Assembly: GCA_964503485.1 (NCBI GenBank)
Contig: CAZDBH010000001.1
Location: forward strand, 2,888-66,887
DNA: 64,000 nucleotides
Direction of reading: 5' to 3'
Origin: an uncultured Bradymonadales bacterium
GTDB taxonomy: Bacteria > Myxococcota_A > Bradymonadia > JAFGEP01
Part shown: positions 1,301 to 20,030 of the stretch, piece after piece
Layout of the letters: every line of letters begins with the position of its first letter
Numbering within the stretch: position 1 is the stretch's first letter
Notes under the pieces: model-generated
Told to the model about the DNA's origin: nothing
Seen by the model: only the letters and a program-made list of their open reading frames with translations
Database searches by the model: none
Position numbers and translations under genes: made by a program

Positions 1301-1363
1301 GGCTGGCAGAAACTGGGCTTTCAGAGGAATAGTGTCTGAGTCGCTCGAGTTCAGGAGAGGTTA

Positions 1364-2326: not shown

Positions 2327-2348
2327 TCACGGCCCGTCGAGGTGCCGA

Positions 2349-2810
2349 TTACTGGCTCGATTCCGTGACACCGGCCTCTTTTCCTGTCTCGACGAAACGT
2401 CGCTCGGAGTCGGGCCGTGGACGTCTGCCCGAGTTGCCGACTGTTTTCCGGATCCGGGTTTCAGTCATTCGCCGGAATTTGAGCCGCTGCCTAAGCTGCG
2501 TCCAGAGTTGGGTTGCTGCCGCGTCCAGCGACTTGCCGCCCCAGTCAGTGACAAATTGCTCGAGATCAGCCCGAAGCCGATGGCCATCTGACTTTGAAGG
2601 CATGGGCGGCTTTGGCCGGCGGCTGACCCACTCCACCTGACGTGACGCGGTGTAGTGGCATTCGTCACAGGCCCAGAAATACTCGTCGCCATCATCGGCG
2701 ACCTCCCGAATGTGATACTCCTGCTGGGCGGTTCGAACCACCCCGTCGCATAGCGGGCAGTTCAACTGTGGCGGCTGTTCGCCATCGCGGCCTTTCGGTG
2801 GACCTGACAT
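2349..2810 (-). CDS. Hypothetical small protein with CxxC...CxxC zinc-ribbon-like motif
   Basis: ORF carries NCPLCDG ... ACDECHY cysteine pairs and lies convergent with the EEP gene. No family was recognised. Confidence 0.3.
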   Translation of the reverse strand: MSGPPKGRDGEQPPQLNCPLCDGVVRTAQQEYHIREVADDGDEYFWACDECHYTASRQVEWVSRRPKPPMPSKSDGHRLRADLEQFVTDWGGKSLDAAATQLWTQLRQRLKFRRMTETRIRKTVGNSGRRPRPDSERRFVETGKEAGVTESSQ

Positions 2811-2907
2811 GTGGCATATTGTCGTGGGCTATCTGCCCATAGTCCAGGCCTCGAGTCCGAGGTTTTCGCTTGCCCCCGATGCGGTCTCCGTTTAAGAAGG
2901 CAGCGCT

Positions 2908-3660
2908 ATGAGCGGTTCGAGCCTAGAACAAAAATTGGGACGCCAAATGGCGCGAGCGGTCATCGAACGAGATATGATCGCCGACGGTGACCGCATCATG
3001 GTGGCGGTGTCTGGGGGCAAAGATTCGTACGTGATGCTCAGACTGCTGCAGCGCATGCAGCGCATCGCTCCACTTCATTTCGACCTGGTTGCCTTTCATC
3101 TCGAGCAAGGCCAACCGGGCTTTCAGGTCGATCTCGTAGAAGAGCAACTCAAAGGAACTGGGGTTGAGTACGTCATTCATCGCCAGGATACGTACTCAAT
3201 AGTCAAAGAAAAGCTCGAGCCGACCCAGACAACGTGCAGCCTATGCTCTCGCCTGCGGCGGGGCATCTTGTACAACCAAGCCGAAAAGATGGAGTGCAAT
3301 AAGATTGCGCTTGGCCATCATCGAGATGATCTGATTCATACCTTGTTGATGAACGTCTTCTTCACTGGTCAAATCAAAACAATGGCTCCCCGACTCACGA
3401 GCGACGACGGACGAAACGTCGTGATCAGGCCGTTGGCCTATTGCTCGGAGGAAAAGATCCTCGAGTACGCCAATCTGGTTGGGTTTCGCGCCGCGCCCTG
3501 CACCTTGTGCACCAATCAAGACGGTCTCAAACGCAACATGGTCGCCGGATTGGTCGACCAATTGGCCCAGACCCATCCCGGTATCAAAGAGAGCATTTTC
3601 GCCAGCCTTCAGAACGTGCGAACCACGCACTTGCTAGACGATCGCCTGCCTTCGGTGTGA
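2908..3660 (+). CDS. ttcA: tRNA 2-thiocytidine biosynthesis protein TtcA (PP-loop ATPase)
   Basis: SGGKDS PP-loop motif plus CSLC...CTLC cysteine motifs and a length of about 250 aa, typical of TtcA. Confidence 0.85.
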   Translation: MSGSSLEQKLGRQMARAVIERDMIADGDRIMVAVSGGKDSYVMLRLLQRMQRIAPLHFDLVAFHLEQGQPGFQVDLVEEQLKGTGVEYVIHRQDTYSIVKEKLEPTQTTCSLCSRLRRGILYNQAEKMECNKIALGHHRDDLIHTLLMNVFFTGQIKTMAPRLTSDDGRNVVIRPLAYCSEEKILEYANLVGFRAAPCTLCTNQDGLKRNMVAGLVDQLAQTHPGIKESIFASLQNVRTTHLLDDRLPSV

Positions 3661-3729
3661 AAACTCGGGAAGCTTCTCAGTTCCGACGTTTTCAAGTATT
3701 TTTAGCACGAATTTACAGGTGCTTAAGAG

Positions 3730-5430
3730 ATGACGCAGGACAACAGTGCCAACATTACGAATGTAACCGGCGCTGCTGACGGCGGCTTGGGTATCATACC
3801 CCTGGGCGGTCTAGGCGAAGTGGGAATGAACTGCACCGTCTACGAGTTCGACGGGCAGCAGATCATGGTTGACTGCGGAATCAACTTTCCAGAGCAGGAT
3901 GACTATGGTGTTGATCACATCATCCCGTCCTTTGCCTACCTGCACCAGAGTGAGACTCGGCTGTCCGCCTGCGTCATTACCCATGGGCACGAAGACCATA
4001 TCGGCGCGATTCCATACCTTTTGCGTGAGTTCAATATCCCGATCTATGGAACGCCTCTGGCCCTCGCACTAATTGCTCGGCGCCTCAAAGAGCACGGCCT
4101 GTACGAGCACGCGACCCTCAACGAGATCTCGGCGGGCGATCGGTTGTCGCTGGGCTGCTTCGATGTCGAGTTCATTCACGTCAATCACAGCATTCCTCAA
4201 TCGACCTCGCTGGCGATCAAGACGCCTGTCGGTATGGTCGTCCACACCAGCGACTTCAAGGTAGACCACGCCCCGAGAAACGAACCACCGATCGACCTCG
4301 CTCGATTCGCCCAACTGGGTGACGAGGGTGTTTTGTGCCTGCTCAGCGACAGCACGAACGTCGGCAGAGACGGCTACACCCGAGGTGAGGGGGCCGTCGC
4401 TCTGTCGTTGGCAAAGCTCATCGAAGACGCTCCGGGTCGGGTCGTCGTTACCCTGTTTTCGTCGAGTCTCCACCGAATTCAGTCCCTACTGGATATTGCC
4501 CATCAGCAGGGCAAACACGTCCTGATGTTGGGCCGAAGCTTGCTTCGAAACCTAGAAGTTGGGCGTGAGCTCGGACTCATTCACTTGCCGTCCGAGGGGC
4601 TGCTCATCGAGCCGAACGAGCTCGAGGCCTTTTCGCACGACAAGATCATTGCCCTGACAACGGGAAGTCAGGGGGAACCACGAAGTGCTCTGACACGAAT
4701 CGCGATGGGCGACCACTCCCAATTCTACATCACGCCGGGCGACCTCGTAATCTACAGCAGTCGAGTCATTCCGGGTAACGAGGCTGCCATCAATCGGGTG
4801 ATCAATCACCTGTACCGCAAGGGTGCCGACGTTCGCCAATCGCACCAACACGAAGCCCATGCTTCGGGTCACGCCTGTCAGCAGGAACAGCGGCTGATTC
4901 TGAATTTGACTCGACCCCGGTTCTTCGTCCCACTTCATGGCGAGTATCGAATGCTGGCTCAACATGCCGCGATCGCCGATCAGTTGGGCGCTGAAAAGAC
5001 CTTCGTCATGGACAACGGTGAAGTCCTCGGCGTCTGGGAAGATGACGCTCAACGGTTGGGCAGGGTCGCGTCAGGAAGGGTACTGGTCGATGGCAAAGGC
5101 ACCGACGATCTCCCGAGTCCTGTGCTGCAAGACCGGAGGAAACTCGCTCGGACGGGGATCGTCGTCGCATGGCTTCTCTTGGACGGAAGCACCGGGGAGG
5201 TTGTGAGCGGTCCAAAGCTGCTGACTCAGGGTGTGTTGGGAATCAGTGACGGCGATGAATTGGTCGAAGACGCGTGCCGAGCGGCTCTTCAGGCTATCTC
5301 CGAACTCAAAGCGGAGAGTCGCAGTGAAGCAGCAGAGGTAGCCGAAACCATGCGGCGGGCTGTTAGGCGACTCTTCAACAAGACCATCGACTCCAAACCG
5401 GTGGTCGTCCCAATCGTGCACGAGCTTTAG
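3730..5430 (+). CDS. rnj: Ribonuclease J (metallo-beta-lactamase/beta-CASP RNase)
   Basis: HGHEDHIGA (HxHxDH) metallo-beta-lactamase motif, length of about 566 aa, beta-CASP region and the RNase J C-terminal domain. Confidence 0.85.
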   Translation: MTQDNSANITNVTGAADGGLGIIPLGGLGEVGMNCTVYEFDGQQIMVDCGINFPEQDDYGVDHIIPSFAYLHQSETRLSACVITHGHEDHIGAIPYLLREFNIPIYGTPLALALIARRLKEHGLYEHATLNEISAGDRLSLGCFDVEFIHVNHSIPQSTSLAIKTPVGMVVHTSDFKVDHAPRNEPPIDLARFAQLGDEGVLCLLSDSTNVGRDGYTRGEGAVALSLAKLIEDAPGRVVVTLFSSSLHRIQSLLDIAHQQGKHVLMLGRSLLRNLEVGRELGLIHLPSEGLLIEPNELEAFSHDKIIALTTGSQGEPRSALTRIAMGDHSQFYITPGDLVIYSSRVIPGNEAAINRVINHLYRKGADVRQSHQHEAHASGHACQQEQRLILNLTRPRFFVPLHGEYRMLAQHAAIADQLGAEKTFVMDNGEVLGVWEDDAQRLGRVASGRVLVDGKGTDDLPSPVLQDRRKLARTGIVVAWLLLDGSTGEVVSGPKLLTQGVLGISDGDELVEDACRAALQAISELKAESRSEAAEVAETMRRAVRRLFNKTIDSKPVVVPIVHEL

Positions 5431-5435
5431 TCCAC

Positions 5436-6284
5436 GTGTCGCAGCAAGACGTCACCTTACCGATTGCGCGAGTCCGCCTGTTCTCGGTGACTCAAGCCTT
5501 TGGTTGGGGTTACCTCACCACCGACTCAATATCCGTCGCCGCCGCAGGTGCAATGCCGTTGCCCCACTCGGTGGCAACTGTAGACCATCAGGATCGGGTG
5601 ATTGCCCAACATCGGGTTGACCAAGACTTGCACGCCCTGTCCGAATCGGAGCGCGGCCCATATTCGCTAAAGATTGGATTGTTGCCGAACCAGCCCAGCG
5701 TCGGGTGCGTGCGGAGCTTCCTACAAGAGCGCACCCCGTCGGTGGTCGTCGTTGACCCTGAGTTGGCGGATCGAAATGGCCGACCTCGAGTCTCGGAGAG
5801 GGTTGTCGAGGCGGTTCGAACCAACCTTGTCGGTAGCGCTGGCCTCATCGTGGTGAACGCAGCGGAGGCCGAACTTCTGACAATGAGGCCCGCGCCGAGC
5901 CCTACCGCGATGCGAGATGCTTGCAAAGCCATCTTCGACCTCGGAGCGCAGCAGGTTGTCGTCACGGGAGGACATCTCGACGGGTTTCCTCTCGACTACT
6001 TCTACGACGGTACCGGTTTCGAAGAACTTGGGGCCGATCGAATCGCGGTGGATGGCGACCTAAAGGGCGCTGGAGGGTTGTTTTCAGCTCTTGCAACGGC
6101 TCGGGTCGTTACGGGATCTGACCCGCTTCACGCCGTTCACTGGGCAAAACAACGTGTTTCGGTCGGCATCAGACATCGGGTCTTTCAAGGGGATTCGATC
6201 GCTTTTCGTGCCGACGGTTCGAGCGGGCGCACGCCCCAGAATGGTGCTTGGGTGCCCGATGTCCGGCAGGCGGTGAACCCGTGA
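5436..6284 (+). CDS. ThiD/PdxK-family (HMP-P kinase-like) ribokinase-fold protein, possibly divergent
   Basis: Collinear with ThiD at KIGLL, VVVDPEL, VVVTGGHLDG and GAGGLFSALATA (ThiD has KIGML, VLDTVM, VLMKGGHL and GTGCTLSAALAA). The N-terminal GG-AGI motif is degenerate. The stop overlaps the next gene start (GTGA). Confidence 0.5.
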   Translation: MSQQDVTLPIARVRLFSVTQAFGWGYLTTDSISVAAAGAMPLPHSVATVDHQDRVIAQHRVDQDLHALSESERGPYSLKIGLLPNQPSVGCVRSFLQERTPSVVVVDPELADRNGRPRVSERVVEAVRTNLVGSAGLIVVNAAEAELLTMRPAPSPTAMRDACKAIFDLGAQQVVVTGGHLDGFPLDYFYDGTGFEELGADRIAVDGDLKGAGGLFSALATARVVTGSDPLHAVHWAKQRVSVGIRHRVFQGDSIAFRADGSSGRTPQNGAWVPDVRQAVNP

Positions 6285-7756
6285 GCGCCAAAGAGCCAAC
6301 ACCACCCAGCCAGACGGGCGAGATTTCTGCGGCTCCCGCGGGGACCCGCTGGCGTGTCGTACGGCGATTCCGGCGCGAGGTCATCCTTGCGGGTATCGGC
6401 GGCATGTTCCTGATTCTCCTGTCGATCGAACGGCCCGCTGGGCTCTCGATGGACGGATGGAAGGCGTTGTGTCTGCTGGCATTCATTGTGACCTTGTGGG
6501 TCACGAACCTCATCCCCCTCGCCGTCAGCAGCCTGCTCGCCATCGCTGCGATTCCGCTGCTGGGACTGATGGAGGAGGGCGAAGCGTACGCCTACTTCGG
6601 GTCGAAAGTGGTCTTCTTCATCATGGGTGCATTTATCCTCGGAGCGGCGCTTGTCGGTTCAGGGCTCAGCACCCGTTTGGCGACTTGGGCTTTGACTCGA
6701 TTTGGAAAGACGCCTAGACGGCTGATCTTCACCTTCTTTGGTGTCGGCGCGTTGGGGTCAACCATCATGAGCGAACACGCCGTCGCCGCGATGCTCTTCC
6801 CGATCGCCATGAGTGTCAGTCGTAACATGGAATTGGCCACCGAGAATCGTCGTTACGGACGAACGCTTTTCATGGCGCTCGCCTGGGGCTGCATTGTTGG
6901 TGGCACAATGACGATCCTGGGCGGCGGTCGAGGTCCACTCGCGATCGGTATGCTCGAGGAGGCAACTAACGGTCAAATGACCGTTGGTTTCATGGAGTAC
7001 GTCGCCTTCGATCTGCCCCTGGTTATCTGGATGTTCTTTTTTGGCTTCCTGATGATCAAACGAAGTGGCGGTCTCAAGCAAGGCGAGGTCAACCCAGCAC
7101 GCGAGCGCCTGAAGACAAAACAGGGCAGGAGAGGAGAGGTCACCAACCGCGAATACGGTGTGGGCATTGTCATGGCCATTACCGTCGTTCTTTGGATCAT
7201 CCGGGGTCACGAGTGGGGCCTTGCGAATATCGCCATTATCTCGACGGCAGTACTCTTCGTTTTCGGCTGGATGACCTGGCGCGAGGTCGAGGATGGGGTC
7301 AACTGGGGCGTCATCTTGATGTACGGGGGCGCTATCTGCCTGGGCGCTGCGCTTCACAAATCGGGAGCCACCGTCTGGCTGACGGCTCCGCTGACCGACG
7401 GGGACTCACTCTCTCCTCAGTTGATTCTGTTCTGCTTGGCGGTCCTGTCGATGGTGTTGACCGAACTGATGAGCAACTCGGCAGTGATTGCTGTCTTGTT
7501 ACCGGTCGCCCTCGAATTGGGAGCGGCACGGGGCATCGACCTGCGTATCGTTACGATGACGATCGTGTTGCCGAGTAACTTCGCATTTGCATTCCCGATG
7601 GCGACCCCCGCCAACGCTCTGGCTTACTCTTCGGGTTTCCTCGACATGAAGACCATGGTAGTCCGTGGACTGCTAATGGACCTTCTGTGTTTGATTGGCT
7701 TCGGGTTGCTGTTATTCATCTACTGGCCTCTATTGGGCTACAGCATGGGGACGTGA
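6281..7756 (+). CDS. DASS/ArsB-NhaD superfamily anion permease
   Basis: Polytopic membrane protein with two hairpin Ser-Asn motifs (MSEHAVAA..P and MSNSAVIAVLLP / SNFAFAFPMATPANA) typical of divalent anion:Na+ symporters. The start was chosen at an in-frame GTG that overlaps the upstream stop. Confidence 0.55.
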   Translation: MSAKEPTPPSQTGEISAAPAGTRWRVVRRFRREVILAGIGGMFLILLSIERPAGLSMDGWKALCLLAFIVTLWVTNLIPLAVSSLLAIAAIPLLGLMEEGEAYAYFGSKVVFFIMGAFILGAALVGSGLSTRLATWALTRFGKTPRRLIFTFFGVGALGSTIMSEHAVAAMLFPIAMSVSRNMELATENRRYGRTLFMALAWGCIVGGTMTILGGGRGPLAIGMLEEATNGQMTVGFMEYVAFDLPLVIWMFFFGFLMIKRSGGLKQGEVNPARERLKTKQGRRGEVTNREYGVGIVMAITVVLWIIRGHEWGLANIAIISTAVLFVFGWMTWREVEDGVNWGVILMYGGAICLGAALHKSGATVWLTAPLTDGDSLSPQLILFCLAVLSMVLTELMSNSAVIAVLLPVALELGAARGIDLRIVTMTIVLPSNFAFAFPMATPANALAYSSGFLDMKTMVVRGLLMDLLCLIGFGLLLFIYWPLLGYSMGT

Positions 7757-8229
7757 TCGTTTTGAGTGTTTACCTCGTCACTTTGTCGAGCGAACGAGAC
7801 AGCGAGCTCCTTATTGAGCGCGCGCTGCACGACAGCGAGAAGGATTCCGCCAAACTCAGGGTGGTCTATGTCGTGATGCCTGCGGATGAGGCCAGCTTGG
7901 CCAAGCTTGGAGAGCAGGCCTGGGTGGGTCAGGCCCTTCTGGATGAGGCGACTCAAGAACTCAAACGCACTGCGCTCAAGGTGGCCATGGCGCGACTCGA
8001 AGAGATCTCTGAGTTGGCGAGAGAACGAGGCATCGACTGTTCGACCGATATCCTCGACGGGAATTTCGAGGTACTAACCCAATCGACAGCCTCAGATCGA
8101 CATGTTACTCGACTGTACGTCAACGGCAGAACCCGAGGCTTATTCAGCCGACTCTTTTTCGGGTCAGAGACAGCGCGCGTGGCGCAAGGTGCCGATTGTG
8201 AAGTAATCGTCGTCGAGGATGGAGTGTAA
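7753..8229 (+). CDS. Universal stress protein (UspA family)
   Basis: LRVVYVV...ARVAQGADCEVIVVE pattern of the UspA alpha/beta fold. A GTG start overlapping the permease stop (GTGA) was chosen; the ORF track start at 7687 overlaps the permease. Confidence 0.5.
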   Translation: MIVLSVYLVTLSSERDSELLIERALHDSEKDSAKLRVVYVVMPADEASLAKLGEQAWVGQALLDEATQELKRTALKVAMARLEEISELARERGIDCSTDILDGNFEVLTQSTASDRHVTRLYVNGRTRGLFSRLFFGSETARVAQGADCEVIVVEDGV

Positions 8230-8234
8230 TTCGT

Positions 8235-8687
8235 ATGTTTGGATATCTGCTCTTGTTTCACATCCTGTTCGCGTCGAGTTGGTGGGGTGTCCCGTTGGGG
8301 CTTCCCTCTCGGCTCAAACGAGCGCTGGCGGTCGATGGCAAAACCCTCCGGGCCGCCGCCGAAGACGCGAACCGTAGAGGCGCCATTGCTTCGGGCATGG
8401 GACTAATGACATTCGCAACGGGCCTGGGAATGGTCTTTAGTATCGGTGGTTTTGGATCGGTTGGACCCGAAATCCACGCAGCTATGACGATTGTTATCAT
8501 CATGTTGGCCCTAGGGCTGGCCGTCATGAAGCCGGGTGGGGCAAAGCTGTATGCGATGACCGATGACTGGAATGACAGCAAGACGGCTGAAGCAGAAGCC
8601 ATCATCAAGCGTCTGGCGATGGTCGGCGGCATCCTTCAGCTGCTTTGGGTCGGAACGTTGGTGTTGATGTTGTGGGGCCGCTTCTAG
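8235..8687 (+). CDS. Hypothetical membrane protein
   Basis: Four predicted TM segments; lies 6 bp downstream of usp in the same operon. Confidence 0.4.
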   Translation: MFGYLLLFHILFASSWWGVPLGLPSRLKRALAVDGKTLRAAAEDANRRGAIASGMGLMTFATGLGMVFSIGGFGSVGPEIHAAMTIVIIMLALGLAVMKPGGAKLYAMTDDWNDSKTAEAEAIIKRLAMVGGILQLLWVGTLVLMLWGRF

Positions 8688-8722
8688 GTCGAACAACCCA
8701 AGGCGGCGATTCCTGCCGTCAC

Positions 8723-10123
8723 CTAAGAGCGCAGTATTTCCTTCTCGAGATGAGCGACCGCTGAGCCGACCGTTTGATCGGATTCGACGAGGTCGCTGAT
8801 CTTACGGCAAGCAGCCAGCACGGTCGTGTGATCGCGACCGCCGAACTTTTCACCGAGCTGCGGATAGGAAAGGCCTGTCAGTCGCTTTGCCAAATACATG
8901 GCCAATTGGCGCGGCTTCGAGAAGGCGCGCTTGCGCTCTTTGCCTTTCATATCAGCGACACGAATCTGATAGTAGCTCGAGACGACCTTTTGGATGTGTT
9001 CGACACTGACGCGTCGATTGTCACCCTTGAGCAGTTGTTGCAGCAAACTCTTGGCCAGCTCCTTAGTGAGGCGCTTGTTGTTGAAGCCGCTGTAGGCGTG
9101 CAGACGAAGGAGCGCTCCCTCGATTTCGCGCACGTTGTCTCGAATGTGCTCTGCCAGGAAGAGGGCTACATCGGGAGTCAGTTCGAGGTTTAGGGCCTGT
9201 GCCTTTCGCTCGATAATCGCCAAACGCGTCTCGAGGGCCGGCGGTTGGATGTCGGCGATCAGGCCCCACTGAAAGCGTGAGCGAAGTCTGCTCTCGATAT
9301 CGCGCAAGTCTTGGGGCGTTCGATCGGAGGTGATGACGATCTGTTTGCCGGCCTGGTGGAGCGTGTTGAAGGTATGGAAGAACTCCTGTTTGGTGCTCTC
9401 TTTACCTGCCAGGAACTGAATATCATCGACGAGCAACACATCGACTTGATCGCGGTAGTACGCCCTGAAGGCCTTCATTTCACCGGCCTTGAGGTGCTCG
9501 ATCAGGCGATTCATGAAGTTTTCGGTCGTGGTGTAGTGGACGTTCAGCTTTGGATCGGCTCGAAGCAGTTCGATACCAACAGCGTTCAGAAGATGGGTTT
9601 TACCTAGACCAACTGCCCCATAGACGAAGAGCGGGTTATAGATGCACCCTGGATGGTTGAAGACAGTGCGACACGCCGCGTGAGCAAACTCATTGCTGTC
9701 ACCAACAACGAACGAATCAAACGAATACTGCAGCTTGAGACCACTGGCCAAAATACGTTCAGTCGGCGTTGGTTCTGCCGGTTGGATGGTCAGCGGTGGA
9801 TCGGTGAGAATCGAACGTTCATTCTGGCGTAGCTTTGGGATCGAATCGGGAACAGCGATACCGGGGCACTCTGTCTTGGCGAGCGGCTCATGGACGAGTT
9901 TTAGTTGAATCTCATCGCCTACGATACGCGTGAGATGGAGCCGAATGAGCTGAGCAAAGTTCCTTTCTATGAAGACGGCATCAAATTCATCATCGGCGAG
10001 CAAACAAAGTTCACTAGTTGTGAACTTTTGCGGTGTGAGCGGCCTGAACCAACGGTTGAACGTGGTCGCTGGTACTTTGGTTTGGATGGCAGCAAGAACA
10101 TCTTTCCAGTGTGCAATCATCAA
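8723..10123 (-). CDS. dnaA: Chromosomal replication initiator DnaA
   Basis: N-terminal WxxxLxxxxxxVPxxxFxxWxRPL, AAA+ Walker A GAVGLGKTHLLNA, DnaA signature VDVLLVDDIQFLAGKE, and a C-terminal DNA-binding domain. Confidence 0.95.
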   Translation of the reverse strand: MMIAHWKDVLAAIQTKVPATTFNRWFRPLTPQKFTTSELCLLADDEFDAVFIERNFAQLIRLHLTRIVGDEIQLKLVHEPLAKTECPGIAVPDSIPKLRQNERSILTDPPLTIQPAEPTPTERILASGLKLQYSFDSFVVGDSNEFAHAACRTVFNHPGCIYNPLFVYGAVGLGKTHLLNAVGIELLRADPKLNVHYTTTENFMNRLIEHLKAGEMKAFRAYYRDQVDVLLVDDIQFLAGKESTKQEFFHTFNTLHQAGKQIVITSDRTPQDLRDIESRLRSRFQWGLIADIQPPALETRLAIIERKAQALNLELTPDVALFLAEHIRDNVREIEGALLRLHAYSGFNNKRLTKELAKSLLQQLLKGDNRRVSVEHIQKVVSSYYQIRVADMKGKERKRAFSKPRQLAMYLAKRLTGLSYPQLGEKFGGRDHTTVLAACRKISDLVESDQTVGSAVAHLEKEILRS

Positions 10124-10927
10124 CTTCCTGGCCGAGCCGGTGGGTGGGTACCAGACAGATCCATCCGTCTCGTTGATTGTCCGTAATCAACGACAGTAGT
10201 ACCCGCCACACACTTCGTGTGTCGCAGTATTCAGATACGATGAAGCTCAAACAATCGAATGTGTCGCAACAGCGACTGACCGAATCCGATCGGTATTCGT
10301 CGCCATCCCCCGTCTTGCGCTCGCATTCGAATCAGTTTTCTTCTATGCGTGACGGAATCGGAAGCACAACGTCGTCATTAGGGAACCCCGCGTACCCAGG
10401 AATGCGACGTACTGCGTCTTCTCGAGTCCGAGAAACACGTTTTCAAAGAGGCTCGATAAACCGTTTACTCGTTTGAAAACCTGTGCTTAGGCAACTTTGA
10501 AGGGAGTGTTTTCCGCAGATCTACCCAAATGAACCAAACAGTCTGAACTGGGTAGCTCGCAGAGTGCTCTCTCCTCAACAGCCTCACACGCAACTTGCAA
10601 GCTAGAACATCAAAAATGGCTCGTCAACCGGTAATCGGCCATCTACATGAAATTTTAAGTGTATGATAAATAAGGTGAATTTTCCAAGTGCTGAAAAACG
10701 TTGCAGCTTTTTTCCTCGGCATTATTGGGACTCGATAAACGTAGGATTTTGTACGGAAAGTCGGTTGCCGAGCTCGCTGCCGAGCGAAAAATCACAAGTT
10801 GTGAGGTAGATCTTCACCCGCGCCATGCGGCCCACTAAGTACGGCTTTCTTCTGTGATTTCGTCGTCTTGTGTCGTGATCTCGAGAGATCTCAGGCCTGG
10901 CCCGGTCTGCGCGCCTCCCAAAATCGC

Positions 10928-10955
10928 TTGACATGGGTCGACGAGTGTCTATTTC
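10928..10955 (+). promoter_or_regulatory. Candidate sigma70-like promoter for groES (TTGACA-N16-TATTTC)
   Basis: A TTGACA hexamer and a weak -10 hexamer lie about 145 nt upstream of the groES ATG. No CIRCE inverted repeat was found. Confidence 0.25.
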
Positions 10956-11099
10956 TTTGCGCCGAATGAACCACCCTGCTTGGCGGCGATTTTTGTTGTC
11001 ATTTCACAGGAGTGGATTCTCTCGTTCCAGCATGAAGAAACAAGACTTTGGGAAGTGGTCACAGACCATTACGAGGCTTCCCCACACGGAGATATACGA

Positions 11100-11387
11100 A
11101 TGAACGTAAAACCATTGGGAGATCGAGTTCTAATTCGCAGGCTCGAGGAAGAGACGCGCAGCAAAGGTGGCATCATCATTCCTGATACCGCCAAAGAGAA
11201 GCCGATGCGCGGCGAAATCGTGGCGACAGGTCCAGGCGAACGAATCAAGGAAGGTGGCCGTCGACCCATGTCCGTGAAAGAGGGCGATACCGTCATCTTC
11301 GGAAAATACGCTGGAACCGAGGTAAAGGTTGATGGTGAGGACTACCTCCTCATTCGCGAAGACGAAATCTTCGCCGTCATCGATTGA
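11100..11387 (+). CDS. groES: Co-chaperonin GroES
   Basis: [35 protein letters not shown]... is the canonical GroES sequence. The true start is the internal ATG preceded by a GGAGA SD; the ORF track's upstream extension is not coding. Confidence 0.9.
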
Positions 11388-11446
11388 ACCAACCAAATCA
11401 TTAGCGGCCGTATCCTACGAGTTTCCGGTCCACTTAGGAGTTATAG

Positions 11447-13039
<1,593 letters not shown>

Positions 13040-13249
13040 GTTACTCCGCTCGGCGATGAATTCTCACGTCGAGTGGTTTTTCTCCCCTTCGAATTCCCAG
13101 TCTATACCCATACCAAGTGCAGCTACTGGTGTAGCCCAATCGGAGGATTGCGCCGCCTTGGCTATCGACTATTCACAGCTCCTGTGGCAAAACCTGTGGC
13201 CAGTCAGTGGATGACTTGGGGTGAATCTCGATGCGGTTTTTTGATCACC

Positions 13250-13415
13250 GATCATCCTGCAAAAAGGCAGCTTGTTATTCACATGATGACGCGTTGAAAG
13301 CGCTTGCTTTTTCAAGGCAATCTTAGTTTATTCACATGTTCACAGGCCCTACTACTACGACGAATAAATAACAAAAAGAAAGTTACTATTTATTCGTAGA
13401 TACACAGGAGCTCAG
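13250..13415. other. Putative oriC core / dnaN upstream region with DnaA boxes and AT-rich DUE-like segment
   Basis: Two exact TTATNCACA matches (TTATTCACA at 13275..13283 and 13328..13336). A weaker TGTTCACAG follows, then a very AT-rich 60 bp with a perfect 10-bp inverted repeat (CGAATAAATA at 13361..13370 and TATTTATTCG at 13387..13396) just before the dnaN start. Confidence 0.45.
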
Positions 13416-14534
13416 ATGCATATATCGATTGACGCAAAAACGCTTGCAGCTTCTCTATACAAGCTCCTAGGTGTCACCAACTCGAAAGGTCCACTGACTA
13501 TCGTCTCCAACGCCTTGTTAACTGCACGTGAGGACAACACCTTGCTGTTGGAAGCCACGGATCTCGAGGTCACAATCTCGACACGGCTGGAGTGCGAAGT
13601 AGACAAGCCAGGACAGCTTTGTCTGAACGCACACAATCTCTACAACGTAGTCAAAGGACTCAAAAACCAAAAAGCTGAGATTGGTGCTCTAGACAACCAC
13701 TGGGCCAAGCTCACATCAGGCGATGTGGACTGTCGAATCGTTGGCGTCCCCCCAGTTGAGTTTCCTAAACTGCCCGCCCTAGGCGAGCTTGCTTATTTCT
13801 CGATCGACACGAGCGCTCTACTCGAGATGGTCGAGCGCACCATCTTCTCGATTTCGACCGATGAGGGTCGCCCCAACTTGATGGGAGCGTATCTGGTCGC
13901 TCGCGACGATGGCCTGATGATGGTCTCTACCGACGGGCACCGATTGTCACGGGTCGCTCGTATAGCCAACGAGTCCGGTGGGTTGCCAAAGGAACTCGTG
14001 GACGGAATCATCATTCCCCGCAAGAGCTTGGCTGAGCTGAAGCGAACCGTTCAAGGTGACGTGCCTGTTATCGATACGGCGATTAGTGGCAACAACGCGG
14101 TGTTTCGTTTTGCCGATACCACGATCATGGTGCGTCTCGTCGACGCGACCTTTCCAGACTACACCCGGGTCATTCCCGAAGAGACGAAAGAACGCCAGGC
14201 TCGCGTGAACACCGCTGAGTTTGTCGAGAAGCTCAAGTTTGTCTCGCTGTTCTCGAACAGCCGAACGGGAAATGTGACGGTTCAGATCGACGGCGATATC
14301 CTACAGCTGTCTGCCAGTGACCCCGACAAGGGCGAAGGGAAAGAAGCTATGCCGGCTGCATACGTCGGTCCCACAGTTCAAGTCGGCTTCAACTACCGCT
14401 ATCTGTTGGATATCCTCAGTGTGCTTGATTCACCCGAGTTTCGCTTCCAGATTCTCGATGCGTATTCGGCCGCTCTCGTGCTGGACGGGGAGCGCGAAGA
14501 TGACCTGTTCCTCGTGATGCCAATGCGTCTATGA
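13416..14534 (+). CDS. dnaN: DNA polymerase III beta sliding clamp DnaN
   Basis: 372 aa with the three-domain beta-clamp pattern, sitting immediately upstream of recF. Confidence 0.9.
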   Translation: MHISIDAKTLAASLYKLLGVTNSKGPLTIVSNALLTAREDNTLLLEATDLEVTISTRLECEVDKPGQLCLNAHNLYNVVKGLKNQKAEIGALDNHWAKLTSGDVDCRIVGVPPVEFPKLPALGELAYFSIDTSALLEMVERTIFSISTDEGRPNLMGAYLVARDDGLMMVSTDGHRLSRVARIANESGGLPKELVDGIIIPRKSLAELKRTVQGDVPVIDTAISGNNAVFRFADTTIMVRLVDATFPDYTRVIPEETKERQARVNTAEFVEKLKFVSLFSNSRTGNVTVQIDGDILQLSASDPDKGEGKEAMPAAYVGPTVQVGFNYRYLLDILSVLDSPEFRFQILDAYSAALVLDGEREDDLFLVMPMRL

Positions 14535-14541
14535 GTTCTGA

Positions 14542-15666
14542 ATGATCATCACTCGTCTGAACCTGACCGACTTTCGAAACATTCGGTCAGGTGAGGTTCT
14601 GCCTCATCCCCATTTCAACATACTCTCAGGACATAACGGCGCCGGTAAGAGCAACGTGCTCGAAGCCATCTTCATCATGTCGAACGTCAAGTCGTTTCGT
14701 AGCGGAAAGAACGCTGATCTCGTCAATCTGAATAGCAAACAGGCTGAGATTCGACTCAAAGTAGACAGGTCTGGCGTTGGCAAAGATCTTCGGGTCGAAA
14801 TCGGGGAACGACGCAAGCGGTTCTGGATCAACGAAAACGCAATCAAGTCCTTTTCAGACTACGCCGGCGCCCTGCGAACCGTCATCTTCAGTCCGGCAGA
14901 TTTACGTCTGTTGCACGGTTCCTCAAAGGAACGTCGGGCCTTCATCGACCGTATCGTCTGCAACACTCAGCCGGTTCATTTGGTCGACCTTCAAAACTTC
15001 GAGACTGCGCTCAAGAGTCGCAATCAGCTTCTCAAGGACCCCCAACCGGATCGCATACTGCTCGACGCCTACACCGATCAGTTCTGTCCACTGGCCGCCC
15101 GGATCATCGCGCGTCGAAACCAAGTGCTCAGTGCGATTGAGCCAACGATCAGAGCGGTGTTCCACTCGATCTTCGCTCCAGGGTTCGATGTTCGGTGCCT
15201 CTATTTCTCGAAGTGGCGGACTGATCAGCCCAACGAAGCGAACTCAGATCTGCCTACGGTGGAACGAACAGAAGAGATACTGCGCGAGCACTTGGTTTCG
15301 ACACGGCACGCTGAGCGACGGGCCGGCTTCACGTTGGTGGGGCCTCACCGCGACGATATCAAAGTCTTCTTGAACGATCTTCCAACTCGCGAATACGCGT
15401 CACAAGGCCAAGCGCGAGCAATCGTCCTGGCGATGAAGATTACCGAGATTCGGTATATTGAAGAGGTCAACCGAGAGTGTCCGGTCTTGTTGCTCGATGA
15501 CGTGTCCAGTGAATTGGATCGGACTCGAAATGAACAGCTGTTTTCCTTCATCCGAGAGTTGAGCGCCCAGACTTTCATTACGACAACCGATCGTCGCTTT
15601 ATCGGTATTGAGGAAGACGTGGCTGAATGGGTACTCCGGGACGGGGAGCTGTCGGTCGTAGACTGA
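14542..15666 (+). CDS. recF: DNA replication and repair protein RecF
   Basis: Walker A GHNGAGKSNVLEAI, the SMC-like signature and a LLLDDV Walker B; canonical position after dnaN. Confidence 0.9.
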   Translation: MIITRLNLTDFRNIRSGEVLPHPHFNILSGHNGAGKSNVLEAIFIMSNVKSFRSGKNADLVNLNSKQAEIRLKVDRSGVGKDLRVEIGERRKRFWINENAIKSFSDYAGALRTVIFSPADLRLLHGSSKERRAFIDRIVCNTQPVHLVDLQNFETALKSRNQLLKDPQPDRILLDAYTDQFCPLAARIIARRNQVLSAIEPTIRAVFHSIFAPGFDVRCLYFSKWRTDQPNEANSDLPTVERTEEILREHLVSTRHAERRAGFTLVGPHRDDIKVFLNDLPTREYASQGQARAIVLAMKITEIRYIEEVNRECPVLLLDDVSSELDRTRNEQLFSFIRELSAQTFITTTDRRFIGIEEDVAEWVLRDGELSVVD

Positions 15667-15742
15667 AATCGATTCGTCGCAGAGAGGTTGCCACCAACAG
15701 GCGACCCGAGATACAACACCCGCACACAGCACACGGAGAGTC

Positions 15743-16510
15743 ATGATGGACGTCAAAGGTCTAACCGAGCGGTTTACGTCGGATAAGGTGCGACTAGCAC
15801 AATTGGGAGGGCTGTTGGCCTTCTCGGTGTTCTCACTTCTGGGAACACTTCTCGACGGCAGATTCATGAGCTTCTTGATTCTAGCCACCCTGGCCGCCTT
15901 TCTGTTTCTGACAATCGCACCGATCTATCTCGCGGCGATTACCGCGAGTGATTCCTCTCTTCCGAAGAGCGGACACATCAGTTTGCGTGCGGCAGAGGGG
16001 GCAGGGATGTCCGGCATCGCACTGACCGTAGCGATTCTGTGTATGGCTCTGGGCGTACTCTTTCAAGGTCTGAAACCCGACGTGGCCCCGGCTCTGGTGC
16101 ATTCATTCCTGGCGGTGTTTGTTCTCGGCGCCCAAGCAATGGTGTGTGCCGCCATCGCAGCTGGCGTAGGGCTGACAAACGTCTTGCGCAGTGCAGACGT
16201 AGTCCTGGAGTCTCCGCCACCACCGAAGCCCAAACCAGCTCCGCAGGCCTATCAGCAACCGGCAGACCAACAACAGGCCTATCAGCAGCAGCAACAGGCC
16301 TACGAGCAGCAACAACAGGCTTATCAGCAGCAACAACAGGCCTATCAGCAGCACCAGCAGGCCGCACCAGCCGCCGCCGCACCAGCGGCACCAGCGGCAC
16401 CAGCCGCCGCCGCACCGGCCGCCGATTCAGCTCAACCCCAGGTTCAACCACCAGCGTGGCCTGCCGAGGGCGGTAGCGATTCGACCGGTGGCGATCAATC
16501 GGGCAGCTAA
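15743..16510 (+). CDS. Membrane protein with Gln/Ala/Pro-rich low-complexity C-terminus
   Basis: Four predicted TM helices are followed by QAYQQQQQAYEQQQQAYQQQQQAYQQHQQ and PAAAAPAAPAAP repeats. It occupies the position where gyrB is usually found. Confidence 0.5.
   Translation: MMDVKGLTERFTSDKVRLAQLGGLLAFSVFSLLGTLLDGRFMSFLILATLAAFLFLTIAPIYLAAITASDSSLPKSGHISLRAAEGAGMSGIALTVAILCMALGVLFQGLKPDVAPALVHSFLAVFVLGAQAMVCAAIAAGVGLTNVLRSADVVLESPPPPKPKPAPQAYQQPADQQQAYQQQQQAYEQQQQAYQQQQQAYQQHQQAAPAAAAPAAPAAPAAAAPAADSAQPQVQPPAWPAEGGSDSTGGDQSGS
16244..16432 (+). repeat. Tandem CAG/CAA-rich about 21-bp repeats followed by GCC/CCA repeats (coding)
   Basis: gcctatcagcagcaacaacag units occur about five times, then ccagcggcaccagc units. 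They encode the QAYQQQQ and PAAAP tracts. Confidence 0.7.
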
Positions 16511-16521
16511 TCTAGGCAACT

Positions 16522-18162
16522 GTGATAGCCAAAGCGGCTCAGAACCTCGAACGAAGGCTAGTCAAATCGGTTCGGAAGTCGGTCGACGTCTCGAGACCCG
16601 ATCAGGTTGCCTCCTATCTAATCGACATTCTCTCAGGTCGTTTTCAACACGACTGGGCACCGAGTGGCCGGTGGACGCTCAAGCAGCTCAACGCCGTGAG
16701 TCGAGCCTACTCTCGCACCCGCTTCGGTGCAAAGTCGAAAGGGGCTTTCTACACGCCAGGTTGGGTCGCTGAACGTTTGGTCGGTCAGGTTACGGACTTC
16801 GGATGGCCGAGCGATCACGTGCTTGATCCGTCCTGTGGCGGCGGGTCCCTTTTACTGGCCGCCATTTCTGCCTTGAACCCATCCAGAGTTACTGGCTGGG
16901 ACACCGATAGGTCGGCGGTTCGACTGGCAAAAGCACTGCTGGAGTACTTCTGCGCCGATCAAAAGCGATCGGTCGAAATCGATCTTCGTTGTGCCGATCA
17001 ATTCGAGGCGGTTGCATCGGTTGGGAACATAGACCTGGTTCTGACCAATCCGCCCTACGGCACGGAGCTCAACGGCTGTGCCAAAGCCTTTGCCGAAACC
17101 CAACGTCTATGCGGCCGGGAACCGGACAAGTTCGCGTTGTCGCTGGAATTATTGCTGTCATTGAGTTGTCCAATAGCTGCGGTAGTACCAGACGTGATTC
17201 GAATGCAGCCCGAATACGAGGTATTGAGGCGGTACCTGACAAAAGAGCACCCGATCGACGCCATAGACAACCTAGAGTTCGGTTCGTTTCCAGAGGCAAC
17301 AGTCCAACCGACTCTGTTGTTCATTGGCCGAAAATCGAACGCTGAACTCTCAGTCCGGTTTTCGTCTCCCACTGAGACAGCAACAGCGGTTTCACGGGAA
17401 GCCATCTCATCTGATCGGCTCTGTCGCTGGCGGCGGAATGTTGGCCTGCTACAGCAGTATTGGGACGCGGATCATCGACCACTCGGTGAGATTGCCCAGT
17501 GCCATGAAGGGGTCCACACAGGCAACATTCGAGAGAAGCTGTTTACGTCAGACGCAAATGTCGATCATGCCCGGCCCCTATTGAAAGGTGCTGACGTGAC
17601 ACCGTTCGCCTTCGATTTTCGCGGTCGGTACGTGCGATATGACAAGGGGCTCATCGACCGAAGCGCAGGGGAGTACGCGTCGCTTAGGGACCCAGATATA
17701 TTCGAAGGTCCCAAACTGTTTAGCCGACAGACGAGCGACAGGTTGGTCGTGTGCTACGACGACGGCAATCTGGTGAGTGACAATACGCTTCACTCGATCA
17801 AGGTCAGGCAAGGGGAGACATATACTCTCGAGTGGCTCGCGCTGTACCTGAACTCCAGTTTGGCGACGGCCCTCTATCGGTTCGAGTCGGGGGAGGAGAA
17901 TCGACCGCTGCCCCAAATTAAACTCGTTCTCTTGAAACAGCTTCCAGTGCCTCGACCGAAGAACGACAAAGAAGCAGAAGCGCTGTTTCGAGAGACAGCC
18001 GAGGCGGCATCGACTGGAGCCCTCGATGACGCCACAATGAGGCGCATCGATCGATTTGTGTTTGACAGCTTTGGTGTGAAGGAGTCAGATAGATCACCGA
18101 TAATCGAAAGGGCGATGACCAAGCCGGTCAGAACTCAGCGACGAGAGCGTTTACCGCAATGA
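16522..18162 (+). CDS. N6-adenine DNA methyltransferase, Eco57I/TaqI-like gamma class, with TaqI_C-like target-recognition domain (orphan)
   Basis: The motif order is GAFYTP, then motif I LDPSCGGGSLL, then motif IV LVLTNPPYG (NPPY). The C-terminal region (LLKGADVTPFAFDFRGRYVRYD...IFEGPKLFSRQTS...) resembles the TaqI_C TRD. No endonuclease partner is adjacent. Confidence 0.75.
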   Translation: MIAKAAQNLERRLVKSVRKSVDVSRPDQVASYLIDILSGRFQHDWAPSGRWTLKQLNAVSRAYSRTRFGAKSKGAFYTPGWVAERLVGQVTDFGWPSDHVLDPSCGGGSLLLAAISALNPSRVTGWDTDRSAVRLAKALLEYFCADQKRSVEIDLRCADQFEAVASVGNIDLVLTNPPYGTELNGCAKAFAETQRLCGREPDKFALSLELLLSLSCPIAAVVPDVIRMQPEYEVLRRYLTKEHPIDAIDNLEFGSFPEATVQPTLLFIGRKSNAELSVRFSSPTETATAVSREAISSDRLCRWRRNVGLLQQYWDADHRPLGEIAQCHEGVHTGNIREKLFTSDANVDHARPLLKGADVTPFAFDFRGRYVRYDKGLIDRSAGEYASLRDPDIFEGPKLFSRQTSDRLVVCYDDGNLVSDNTLHSIKVRQGETYTLEWLALYLNSSLATALYRFESGEENRPLPQIKLVLLKQLPVPRPKNDKEAEALFRETAEAASTGALDDATMRRIDRFVFDSFGVKESDRSPIIERAMTKPVRTQRRERLPQ

Positions 18163-20030
18163 CAGACCAGCCACACCCCATGCTCCCGAAGGCCGGAGAT
18201 ATCCTGTTGGGGAGGTACGTCATTGAAGAGGTGCTCGGCGAGGGTGGTTTCGCAACAGTCTATCGGGGCCACCAGCTGGGGGTAGAGCGCACCGTCGCGA
18301 TCAAGTGCCTCGATCCGAGTTCTATCAACAAAGATCGTGGCGCAGCACAGCGGTTTACAAGCGAAGCCCGGGTTGCGAGTGGGTTAGAACACCCCAATAC
18401 CATCACCGTTTTCGACTATGGCCGAACCGAGAAGGGCATCCTCTTCCTGGTGATGGAATACGTCGACGGTGTGACACTCGAGACCTTGCTCGAGCGCGGT
18501 CCAGTGCAGCCTGAGCGGGCTGCCCACATAGTGAGACAGATCCTCCACAGCCTGCGGGAAGCCCACAGTCATCAAATCGTCCACCGCGATCTCAAGCCAT
18601 CAAACATTATGGTCTGCGACCGTGCCGGTGAAACCGATGTGGTCGTTGTGCTCGATTTCGGAATCGCGAAGGTCCTAACAGGTGAGAGTCCGATGGACAT
18701 CACCCGAAAGATGACTGGGCTAGACAAGATAATCGGTACACCGCGCTATATGTCGCCGGAGCAGATCCGTGGCAAGCAACTGACACCGGCTTCGGATGTC
18801 TATTCGGTGGGACTGATATTCTTCGAGCTGCTCACAGGTCAGCCGCTCATCGAGCATTCAGAGACCATGGTGGTGTTGAGCAAGCAACTCACACAGGCAC
18901 CGCTCGAACTCCCGAGAGATGGGAGTATCGAGCCCAAGTACCTCACCGTCTTGGAGCAGGCACTACAGAAGGAAGTCAGCAAGCGATTTCGGACGGTAAA
19001 CGAATTCCTGGGCGCCCTCGATGTGGCGCCTATGTACGTTTATAGCCCGGCCCAGATTCAAATGGCCGAGGCAGAAACCGTTCCCCTGGACCTAGACAAC
19101 ATCAAAGAAATGGTGGTCGCACAGCACGCAGCCAAGCAGGTGCAAGAGCGGCGACTGGACCCTGTAGTCATGCCCCGACCCGGGGTTGCGCCGAGCGCGC
19201 AGCCCGGAAACCGCAACATCGTTCTGTTGAATATTCTGCTGGCCTCTTTGTTGATTTTCCTGGGGATCATTTTCGGCGCAGTTGTTCTGCCCCGTCTTCT
19301 CAGTGACGGCCAGTCAGATCGAATCGTGTACGTCACCCAAGAAGGGGTGCAAGTCGAGCCACCAACCGGAGCACCCGAGTCAGGACGAGAGTCCCCACCG
19401 GTAACCGCACCCCTGCAGTCCTATCAGGTGGCTCACACACGCAGCATAGTGAACCGGGCACAAGTCGCGGCGATGACCGCGGCCAATCCTCTGAGATTCA
19501 CATTCATCGGATCGCCGGACGGTGTGTCACTCACGCTGGCAGGGGATACCATCGGCAATCAAGGTGAGGTCATCGCTATCCCCCCCGACCGGTTGCCCAA
19601 CGAAGTGGAAATCAGCGCAGACGGTTATTACTCGGATTGGGTGCTCGTCGCGGTCGACACGCCCCGCACAGTGGTATTCAACTTGAGGCCATTGGTCGCT
19701 GCGGCGACCCCCAACGATACAACGAGCACCCGTCGAACCGCTTCGAGCGATCGGGATAGGGAGCGATCCAGCAGAAGCCGCGAACGCAGCAGTCGATCAG
19801 AGCGCGACAGAGAGGAAGCCCCGGAAGAGTCCACTATTGGCCTGATCGATTTAGACCGGTCCCAAGGCGCTTCGGACGGCGATCGATCGAGCCGATCTTC
19901 GGCCTCGAGTTCTACCTCCACCAACTCGACCATCATCGCACCCATCGACGAGAGTCGGAGCAGTCGAAGTCGCTCACGTCAACGCGACGAAGAAGACGAA
20001 TCCGCGGCCAGTGCGTTTGAGCCTTTCTGA
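18159..20030 (+). CDS. Hanks-type Ser/Thr protein kinase, single-pass membrane, with Arg/Ser/Asp/Glu-rich tail
   Basis: LGEGGFATVYRG, VAIKCL, HRDLKPSNIMV, DFGIAK and GTPRYMSPEQ motifs; one TM segment (IVLLNILLASLLIFLGIIFGAVVL); the tail is RTASSDRDRERSSRSRERSSRSERDREE...SRSSRSRSRQRDEEDE. The start ATG overlaps the methyltransferase stop (ATGA). Confidence 0.85.
   Translation: MTDQPHPMLPKAGDILLGRYVIEEVLGEGGFATVYRGHQLGVERTVAIKCLDPSSINKDRGAAQRFTSEARVASGLEHPNTITVFDYGRTEKGILFLVMEYVDGVTLETLLERGPVQPERAAHIVRQILHSLREAHSHQIVHRDLKPSNIMVCDRAGETDVVVVLDFGIAKVLTGESPMDITRKMTGLDKIIGTPRYMSPEQIRGKQLTPASDVYSVGLIFFELLTGQPLIEHSETMVVLSKQLTQAPLELPRDGSIEPKYLTVLEQALQKEVSKRFRTVNEFLGALDVAPMYVYSPAQIQMAEAETVPLDLDNIKEMVVAQHAAKQVQERRLDPVVMPRPGVAPSAQPGNRNIVLLNILLASLLIFLGIIFGAVVLPRLLSDGQSDRIVYVTQEGVQVEPPTGAPESGRESPPVTAPLQSYQVAHTRSIVNRAQVAAMTAANPLRFTFIGSPDGVSLTLAGDTIGNQGEVIAIPPDRLPNEVEISADGYYSDWVLVAVDTPRTVVFNLRPLVAAATPNDTTSTRRTASSDRDRERSSRSRERSSRSERDREEAPEESTIGLIDLDRSQGASDGDRSSRSSASSSTSTNSTIIAPIDESRSSRSRSRQRDEEDESAASAFEPF

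Follow-up and report, generated by a model that had tools for sequence, protein, structure and literature searches.

Comparative analysis of a 64,000-nucleotide stretch of genomic DNA from an uncultured Bradymonadales bacterium (hereafter the window) suggests that the region directly upstream of dnaN, at 13136-13415, is very likely the DnaA-assembly and unwinding module of the chromosomal origin, namely a monopartite oriC of the type known from B. subtilis as incC or BUS (Richardson 2016, 2019; Pelliciari 2021, 2023). The odd gene order around it, in which dnaA points away from dnaN and is separated from it by the groES-groEL operon, is very likely secondary and the product of a recent inversion. 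An earlier reading of the letters alone (the sequence-only reading) had already placed oriC between groEL and dnaN rather than in the dnaA-groES spacer, and this placement is upheld by the BUS-type anatomy of the region, its conservation in every relative examined, the selection that has acted on it since the inversion and the boxless state of the spacer. As the GC skew inside the window shows no origin-type switch at either candidate site, the support for this placement is comparative rather than direct. The relatives compared were the contigs encoding the closest DnaAs (L081-L090), with more distant genomes as outgroups.

Anatomy of the region upstream of dnaN

Exact matches to the DnaA box TTATNCACA occur twice in the 64 kb, both in the form TTATTCACA, at 13275-13283 and 13328-13336. 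The presence of at least two exact boxes in the window is unremarkable when taken alone, being seen in 16 of 100 shuffles. When boxes with up to two mismatches are considered, nine are clustered within 13102-13406, as against about 1.2 expected from the window-wide density. The two exact boxes had been taken to be the only clear ones, and they are indeed unique in the 64 kb, but they are accompanied by an overlapping box (13336-13344) and by a degenerate array in the reverse orientation. The exact box at 13275-13283, on the plus strand, forms a middle box whose position is kept in the relatives as a box ending in CACA. The proximal tandem pair, also on the plus strand, comprises TTATTCACA (13328-13336) and ATGTTCACA (13336-13344), and is the equivalent of the box 6/7 pair of B. 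subtilis; its pattern, ..CACA-n-n-..CACAG, is common to all lineages aligned. The distal array (13183-13214, minus strand) consists of three reverse degenerate boxes with the core CCTGTGGCAAAACCTGTGG, whose TGTGG elements start at 13183, 13195 and 13206 and are thereby phased at 12 and 11 nt, those at 13183 and 13206 having two mismatches. Within this array T-G-T-G and T-G-T-G-G columns are invariant across seven lineages. In B. subtilis incC the proximal pair has a fixed orientation, whereas the distal boxes function whichever way they point and over differing distances, probably via a loop (PMC6669920). The DnaA of the window, which in a PDB sequence search matched the B. subtilis DnaA chain 8btg_A best (E=3e-108), retains the domain IV DNA-binding signature PRQ...FGGRDHTTV, and canonical box specificity is therefore expected.

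The BUS rule set (PMC8287927) specifies a box with two mismatches or fewer, optionally a second box in tandem with up to four mismatches and no more than 3 bp away, and at least three NAN trios, which are found downstream of the box on the strand opposite 5'-TTATCCACA-3' after a spacer of 0-16 bp (mode 13) with a GC-rich gap of about 4 bp. The region conforms to each of these rules. In the window, the box at 13328-13336 differs from TTATCCACA at one position and the tandem box at 13336-13344 at three. The spacer between box and first trio, TGTTCACAGGCC, is 12 bp long and contains the GC cluster GGCC (13345-13348, plus strand), which lies between the boxes and the trios and is represented by GGCC, GCCC or GGAC in the relatives. 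The trios themselves (13349-13363) read CTA CTA CTA (CGA CGA) on the top strand, giving three perfect consensus 3'-GAT-5' trios on the opposite, minus strand. The uninterrupted series CTACTACTA at 13349-13357 is unique in the 64 kb, with 0.03 occurrences expected, and four to five CTA trios each are present in L081, L087, L089 and L090. The trios, which are the decisive element of the module, had gone unmentioned in the sequence-only reading. The orientation of the trios relative to the box agrees with the supplementary tables of Pelliciari et al. 2021, in which the arrangement is given in complement notation as AATAGGTGT...(C)GGG-GATGATGAT (PMC8287927), and also with the C. difficile example, for which the dnaA-dnaN trio CACCTACTACTATTACTACTA, written 5'-CACCTACTACTATTACTACTATGA-3', was used.

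In keeping with the AT-rich, readily melting region that comes next in a BUS, the trios are directly followed by the least stable 30-mer of the entire window (13363-13393), which has an A+T content of 87% and a mean stability of -1.01 kcal/mol per step, about 5 standard deviations from the window mean of -1.50 (standard deviation 0.10). This segment belongs to a putative AT-rich unwinding element (13361-13400) that reaches up to the dnaN ribosome-binding site. The inverted repeat that had been noticed within it at 13361-13396 is present in the sequence, its arms being CGAATAAATA (13361-13370) and TATTTATTCG (13387-13396). A hairpin-forming repeat is found at the same place after the trios in most lineages, with a different sequence in each case and shuffle z-scores ranging from -0.8 to -4.0; examples are those at 11872-11901 in L083, 11603-11635 in L087 and 2024-2058 in L089. 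In L081 the arms of the repeat reach into the last trio (CTACGAATAAATAAC / GTTA..TATTTATTCGTAG), so that the distal arm carries TAG on its top strand. Such a repeat could aid unwinding or helicase loading, serve as the site of a dimeric regulator, or form a stem-loop in the 5' untranslated region of dnaN. The least stable 50-mer of the window lies elsewhere, in an intergenic region near the left end (360-424, 80% A+T) that has no cluster of DnaA boxes and is therefore probably a promoter region.

The anatomy of the region, its conservation, the synteny and the selection on it are shown by the sequences compared; that DnaA binds and unwinds 13136-13415 and that the origin fires there is what we infer. 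The tandem proximal boxes (13328-13344) would serve DnaA-ATP as the docking site for its domain IV. The middle box at 13275, together with the distal array of phased reverse boxes (13183-13214), would raise the local concentration of DnaA, probably by looping. The DnaA oligomer would then extend over GGCC onto the minus-strand 3'-GAT-5' trios (13349-13357) via domain III, and could stretch and open the adjacent 87% A+T segment (13361-13400). Helicase loading would in this scheme take place approximately 20-60 bp upstream of the dnaN start.

Conservation of the module and probable inversion of the dnaA-groESL block

The same elements are found in the same order upstream of dnaN in eight other lineage sequences, namely ATCGAC, the TGTGG-N7-TGTGG array, the middle box, the tandem boxes, the GC cluster, the CTA trios, the AT-rich inverted repeat and the dnaN ATG. 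The module adjoins dnaN in all nine lineage sequences, the window included, and is the same whether its upstream neighbor is dnaA, as in the canonical lineages, or groEL, as in the window and L081. The distance from the first trio to the dnaN start is 63-69 nt in six of the seven sequences with a match in the rule-based search (again including the window) and 95 nt in L087. Homology to the canonical dnaA-dnaN spacers of L083, L089 and L090 starts at about 13136, and the preceding 96 nt belong to the inverted block discussed below.

Comparison with L081, which shares the unusual gene order, provides a measure of the constraint on the module. Over the 280 bp of 13136-13415 the two sequences are 89.3% identical, as against 82% for the coding DNA of groEL and dnaN, 50-60% for the third codon positions of the flanking genes, 59-64% for the adjoining 13040-13135 and 81% over the aligned positions of the dnaA-groES spacer. 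Few bases are better preserved than those of the trios and the AT-rich segment. The excess of identity in the module over that at third codon positions shows that strong purifying selection has acted on it after the inversion.

ATCGAC (13164-13169, plus strand) marks the left edge of oriC and is accompanied by a box with one mismatch, CTATTCACA (13169-13177, plus strand), that is present in the window and L081 only. In eight of the nine lineage sequences (L081, L083, L085 and L087-L090 besides the window) the motif, in the form ATCGAC(A), precedes the first TGTGG box by 7-20 nt, and it is probably a degenerate DnaA box (nnATCGACA). The possibility that the TCGA within it is the target of the conserved TaqI_C-type methyltransferase encoded downstream of recF found no support, as TCGA is neither depleted nor enriched (observed/expected 1.06) and a degenerate DnaA box is the better reading.

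The identities of the genes in this region were judged by the curated cut-offs of NCBIfam, which all five gene calls pass. They are dnaA (8723-10123, minus strand; TIGR00362, 517 bits against a cut-off of 344), encoding a full-length initiator with domains I-IV; groES (11100-11387, plus strand; NF001531, 136 bits); groEL (11447-13039, plus strand; NF009488, 842 bits); dnaN (13416-14534, plus strand; TIGR00663, 233 bits against a cut-off of 138), with the ribosome-binding site AGGAG at 13406-13410; and recF (14542-15666, plus strand; TIGR00611, 319 bits). These positions and identities confirm the layout described in the sequence-only reading, with dnaA on the minus strand and divergent from groESL, and dnaN-recF on the plus strand at a distance of 3.3 kb.

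The nearest named homologues of this DnaA come from metagenome-assembled genomes (MAGs) labelled Bradymonadales or Myxococcales (54% and 52% identity) and from Lujinxingia (47%). Seven of the relatives (L083 and L085-L090), whose DnaAs are 54-69% identical to that of the window, show the canonical order of dnaA followed by dnaN, and in part by recF, on the same strand. In all five relatives with sufficient flanking sequence, and in the short contig L084, groES and groEL lie divergently upstream of dnaA, with a spacer of 600-790 bp; the spacers occupy 9355-10000 in L083, 9281-10000 in L085, 9215-10000 in L086, 9267-10000 in L087 and 9401-10000 in L088, corresponding to 10124-11099 in the window. 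The layout in which a minus-strand dnaA is followed by groES, groEL, dnaN and recF is confined to the window and a sister species represented by L081 and L082 (DnaA 96% identical at the protein and 84% at the nucleotide level). No groEL was found within 10 kb of dnaA in 80 more distant genomes (DnaA identity of at most 43% in the contig search). Judging from this synteny, the divergent groESL-dnaA pair is an ancestral trait of the clade. Its clade-wide presence, taken together with the restriction of the inverted layout to two species, suggests a recent inversion of the whole block from dnaA through the spacer to groES and groEL. The ancestral arrangement would have been groES and groEL transcribed leftward, followed by rightward dnaA, oriC, dnaN and recF. 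The block of dnaA, the 976-bp spacer, groES and groEL, at about 8.69-13.13 kb (4.4 kb), would have flipped in the lineage of the window and its sister, with one breakpoint close behind dnaA and the other shortly before oriC, thereby leaving oriC with dnaN and turning dnaA away. The observation that a heat-shock operon sits inside the origin cluster thus holds as far as the layout is concerned, but the synteny of the relatives indicates that groESL was not inserted there, an ancestral dnaA-groESL block having been inverted instead. Within the groEL 3' flank and right-hand breakpoint zone (13040-13135), a weak hairpin with a T-run at 13054-13081 resembles a terminator. The breakpoints of the inversion were searched for inverted repeats, and none were found.

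The rearrangement seems to have involved more than this block. In the left flank, the segment at 407-8687 (encoding ATP_bind_3, RNase J, Phos_pyr_kin, Na_sulph_symp and Usp proteins and a 150-aa open reading frame) is also inverted relative to L083 and L085, so that no fewer than two inversions with a breakpoint in common, or else a single complex event, must be assumed. As a consequence, nearly all genes across the 13 kb to the left of the origin point towards it, i.e. head-on. In the wider group, L091, a Bradymonadaceae MAG (DnaA 44%), has dnaA followed on the same strand by rpmH-rnpA-yidC-...-mnmE (10001-17106), with neither dnaN nor groEL within 10 kb, and represents another non-canonical origin region. 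On the other side of the origin, recF is not followed by gyrB; a clade-conserved cluster is found instead (15743-20030), in the same order in L082, L083, L085, L086 and L088. Its products are an uncharacterised protein of 190-270 aa, a TaqI_C-domain N6-adenine methyltransferase (16522-18162) and a Ser/Thr kinase (18159-20030), and it has weak matches to models of the MADS and BREX defence systems. The stable synteny of this cluster beside the origin argues for a housekeeping role.

The dnaA-groES spacer and alternative explanations

The 976-bp spacer between dnaA and groES (10124-11099) has the features of a divergent promoter region rather than of an origin. It had been described as devoid of clear boxes, and this description fits what was found: there is no box with at most one mismatch in the spacer of the window, and boxes with at most two mismatches are at background density (six against about 3.9 expected). 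In the homologous spacers of seven relatives the only boxes with at most one mismatch are single 1-mismatch matches in L081/L082 and in L087. A second box cluster, as would be seen in a bipartite origin, is consequently lacking from the groES-dnaA spacer of the window and of these seven relatives. The trio series CTACTACTA occurs at 13349 only, so that no trios are present in the spacer. Facing dnaA on the minus strand is a single conserved promoter-like element (10601-10627) comprising the -35-like hexamer GGTTGACG (10622-10627), a gap of 15 nt and TCTAGC; its GTTGAC is invariant in all seven aligned spacers, and it is a putative dnaA promoter. As it lies some 480 nt ahead of the dnaA start codon, dnaA would have an unusually long leader of that length, and this region contains hairpin-prone segments, e.g. 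TCGTTGATT...AATCAACGA at 10170-10193. Directly upstream of the hexamer lies an AT-rich block of the UP-element or second-promoter type (10644-10674), which is the second least stable 30-mer of the window, has no adjoining DnaA boxes, and is overlapped by a sigma-70-like TTCACC-16-TAAAAT on the minus strand (10679-10652). This second stability minimum is therefore best explained as a promoter element. Towards groES, a promoter-like element on the plus strand (10928-10955) consists of TTGACA, a gap of 16 nt and TATTTC, and TGTCAAG...ATAG-CAC is kept in the spacers of the relatives. The CIRCE element TTAGCACTC-N9-GAGTGCTAA, which would indicate control by HrcA upstream of groES, has no match with up to three mismatches in the whole window. 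A search of 8000-16000 against Rfam gave no match at E<=1, indicating that no known RNA accounts for the length of the spacer.

Several further features of the spacer were recorded. A conserved motif, GGTGAAGATC-N4-TCAC, containing the palindrome TCACAAGTTGTGA, lies between the divergent promoters at 10792-10818. A 14-nt perfect inverted repeat pairs GACATGGGTCGACG in the groES -35 region (10930-10943) with groES coding sequence at 11259-11272; chance alone would give about 0.05 such pairs in this 4.9-kb region. The window has a segment of approximately 157 nt (about 10370-10530), with the inverted repeats ACACGTTTTCAAA/TTTGAAAACCTGT inside it, that is missing from L081; it was rejected as an obvious mobile element, given that no further copy exists in the window or the other loci. 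A small open reading frame at 10722-10934 on the minus strand, called as a gene in L081, was likewise dismissed, since it shows no protein conservation beyond a 14-aa match over the conserved DNA motif.

Some observations weigh against the placement of the origin upstream of dnaN. A strand-corrected regression of GC skew at third codon positions (GC3 skew) shows no origin-type switch at 13.35 kb, the side term (-0.035 +/- 0.021) having weakly the wrong sign in a short window whose left flank was recently inverted. Neither the raw nor the strand-corrected GC3 skew shows a switch at 13.35 or 10.6 kb within the 64 kb, and in so short a window with recently rearranged flanks the skew is uninformative. 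An origin at 13.35 kb would further place the leftward fork head-on to groEL-groES and to at least 8 kb of other plus-strand genes, an arrangement that is mildly disfavoured. At the level of the module, the proximal boxes overlap by 1 nt (an 8-nt register) instead of lying 0-3 nt apart, which is slightly tighter than in published examples, and the strict BUS rule fails in the distant relatives L083, L086 and L088, in which the box has more than two mismatches or only two trios are present.

Against this background three other explanations deserve consideration. The orientation of the genes would be better accommodated by an origin within the dnaA-groES spacer, either entire or as one of the two parts known from the bipartite origins of B. 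subtilis, H. pylori and C. difficile: dnaA, groESL and dnaN would then all be co-directional with replication and head-on transcription of groESL would be avoided. The spacer is also long and fairly conserved (81% relative to L081), and harbors the second least stable 30-mer at 10644-10674. Nevertheless, the dearth of boxes with at most one mismatch in the window and essentially also in seven relatives, the background density of weaker boxes and the absence of trios make such an origin very unlikely, more so as the AT-rich block lies directly upstream of the invariant TTGACG promoter-like hexamer, overlaps the sigma-70-like match and so has the hallmarks of a promoter element. The GC3 skew, moreover, is equally without a switch at 10.6 kb. 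Alternatively, the boxes clustered upstream of dnaN might only serve DnaA-dependent regulation of dnaN-recF or titration, or be a relic, with the active origin outside the window. In B. subtilis, DnaA is reported to be a transcription factor too and to bind box clusters outside oriC (PMC3245932, PMC2533591), and dnaN would need a promoter of its own in or near the cluster after the inversion; the lack of a skew switch fits this explanation too. A promoter scan and inspection by eye found no convincing sigma-70 promoter for dnaN inside 13040-13415. An operator, however, requires no GC cluster, no consensus trios in fixed orientation and no AT-rich segment at a fixed distance, all of which are conserved across the clade, with the trios and AT-rich segment standing out in the comparison with L081. 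As dnaN-adjacent origins are in addition the rule in many phyla, a purely regulatory or relic cluster appears improbable.

The layout itself could in principle be an artefact, given that the source is metagenomic and that misjoins at repeats can mimic inversions, with groEL and dnaN joined in a chimera. The 376-bp groEL-dnaN junction is nevertheless 100% identical in four independent metagenome assemblies from different samples, which indicates that it is not a misassembly. The same layout was independently assembled in the second species in two assemblies (L081 and L082), and there are no repeats at the breakpoints, so that an artefact can be given practically no credence. The reading of 13136-13415 as a monopartite, incC-like oriC that stayed in place while an inversion turned dnaA away accounts best for these observations.

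Relationship to described origins and implications

The closest described system is the incC/BUS of B. subtilis, which likewise lies directly upstream of dnaN and with which the module shares tandem boxes in a fixed orientation, a GC cluster of about 4 bp, 3'-GAT-5' trios, an AT-rich element and, further upstream, distal boxes in the opposite orientation. Unlike in B. subtilis, a second box cluster upstream of dnaA is lacking in the window, and the origin is accordingly continuous rather than bipartite. Other differences are that the upstream neighbor of the module is no longer dnaA, that the proximal boxes overlap by 1 nt, and that only three canonical trios are present, followed by CGA CGA. 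A comparable situation is seen in the bipartite origins (incAB+incC of B. subtilis and oriC1/oriC2 of H. pylori and C. difficile), in that the unwinding part in the canonical relatives of the window lies downstream of dnaA and upstream of dnaN; the trio sequence is nearly identical to that of C. difficile oriC2. In contrast to these origins, the region upstream of dnaA has no box cluster in any lineage examined. A linkage of oriC with dnaN in the absence of dnaA is also known from cyanobacteria such as Anabaena PCC 7120 and Synechococcus elongatus PCC 7942 (Ori-Finder/DoriC), for which a review proposes that an ancestral origin lay between dnaA and dnaN and that dnaA later moved elsewhere (PMC4009838). 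The window differs from the cyanobacterial cases in that the separation amounts to 3.3 kb and arose by a local inversion whose course can still be traced by comparison with sister lineages, and in that its boxes are of the form TTATNCACA and not the cyanobacterial TTTTCCACA. Taken together, these comparisons indicate that this is a BUS-type oriC in the standard place, and neither a new origin architecture nor a new initiation mechanism.

A more speculative functional connection, to which we assign a low probability, is that groESL and dnaA are co-regulated via the inter-promoter region of approximately 330 bp with its GGTGAAGATC-N4-TCAC motif, and that in the inverted lineage stress-induced transcription of groESL into oriC could let heat shock modulate firing. 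The terminator-like site of groEL is situated about 100 bp from the first box. If this connection were true, heat shock would act on firing by read-through or positive supercoiling, and the inversion would constitute a natural experiment on how transcription and an origin are coupled, with the head-on conflict falling directly at that origin.

The module allows the origin of an uncultured lineage related to the Bradymonadales to be assigned with confidence. It also appears to document a step that reviews had only postulated, in which a small inversion removes dnaA, the unwinding module stays under selection and oriC is left linked to dnaN alone. In genomes of this kind, origin-prediction tools anchored on dnaA would search the wrong spacer.

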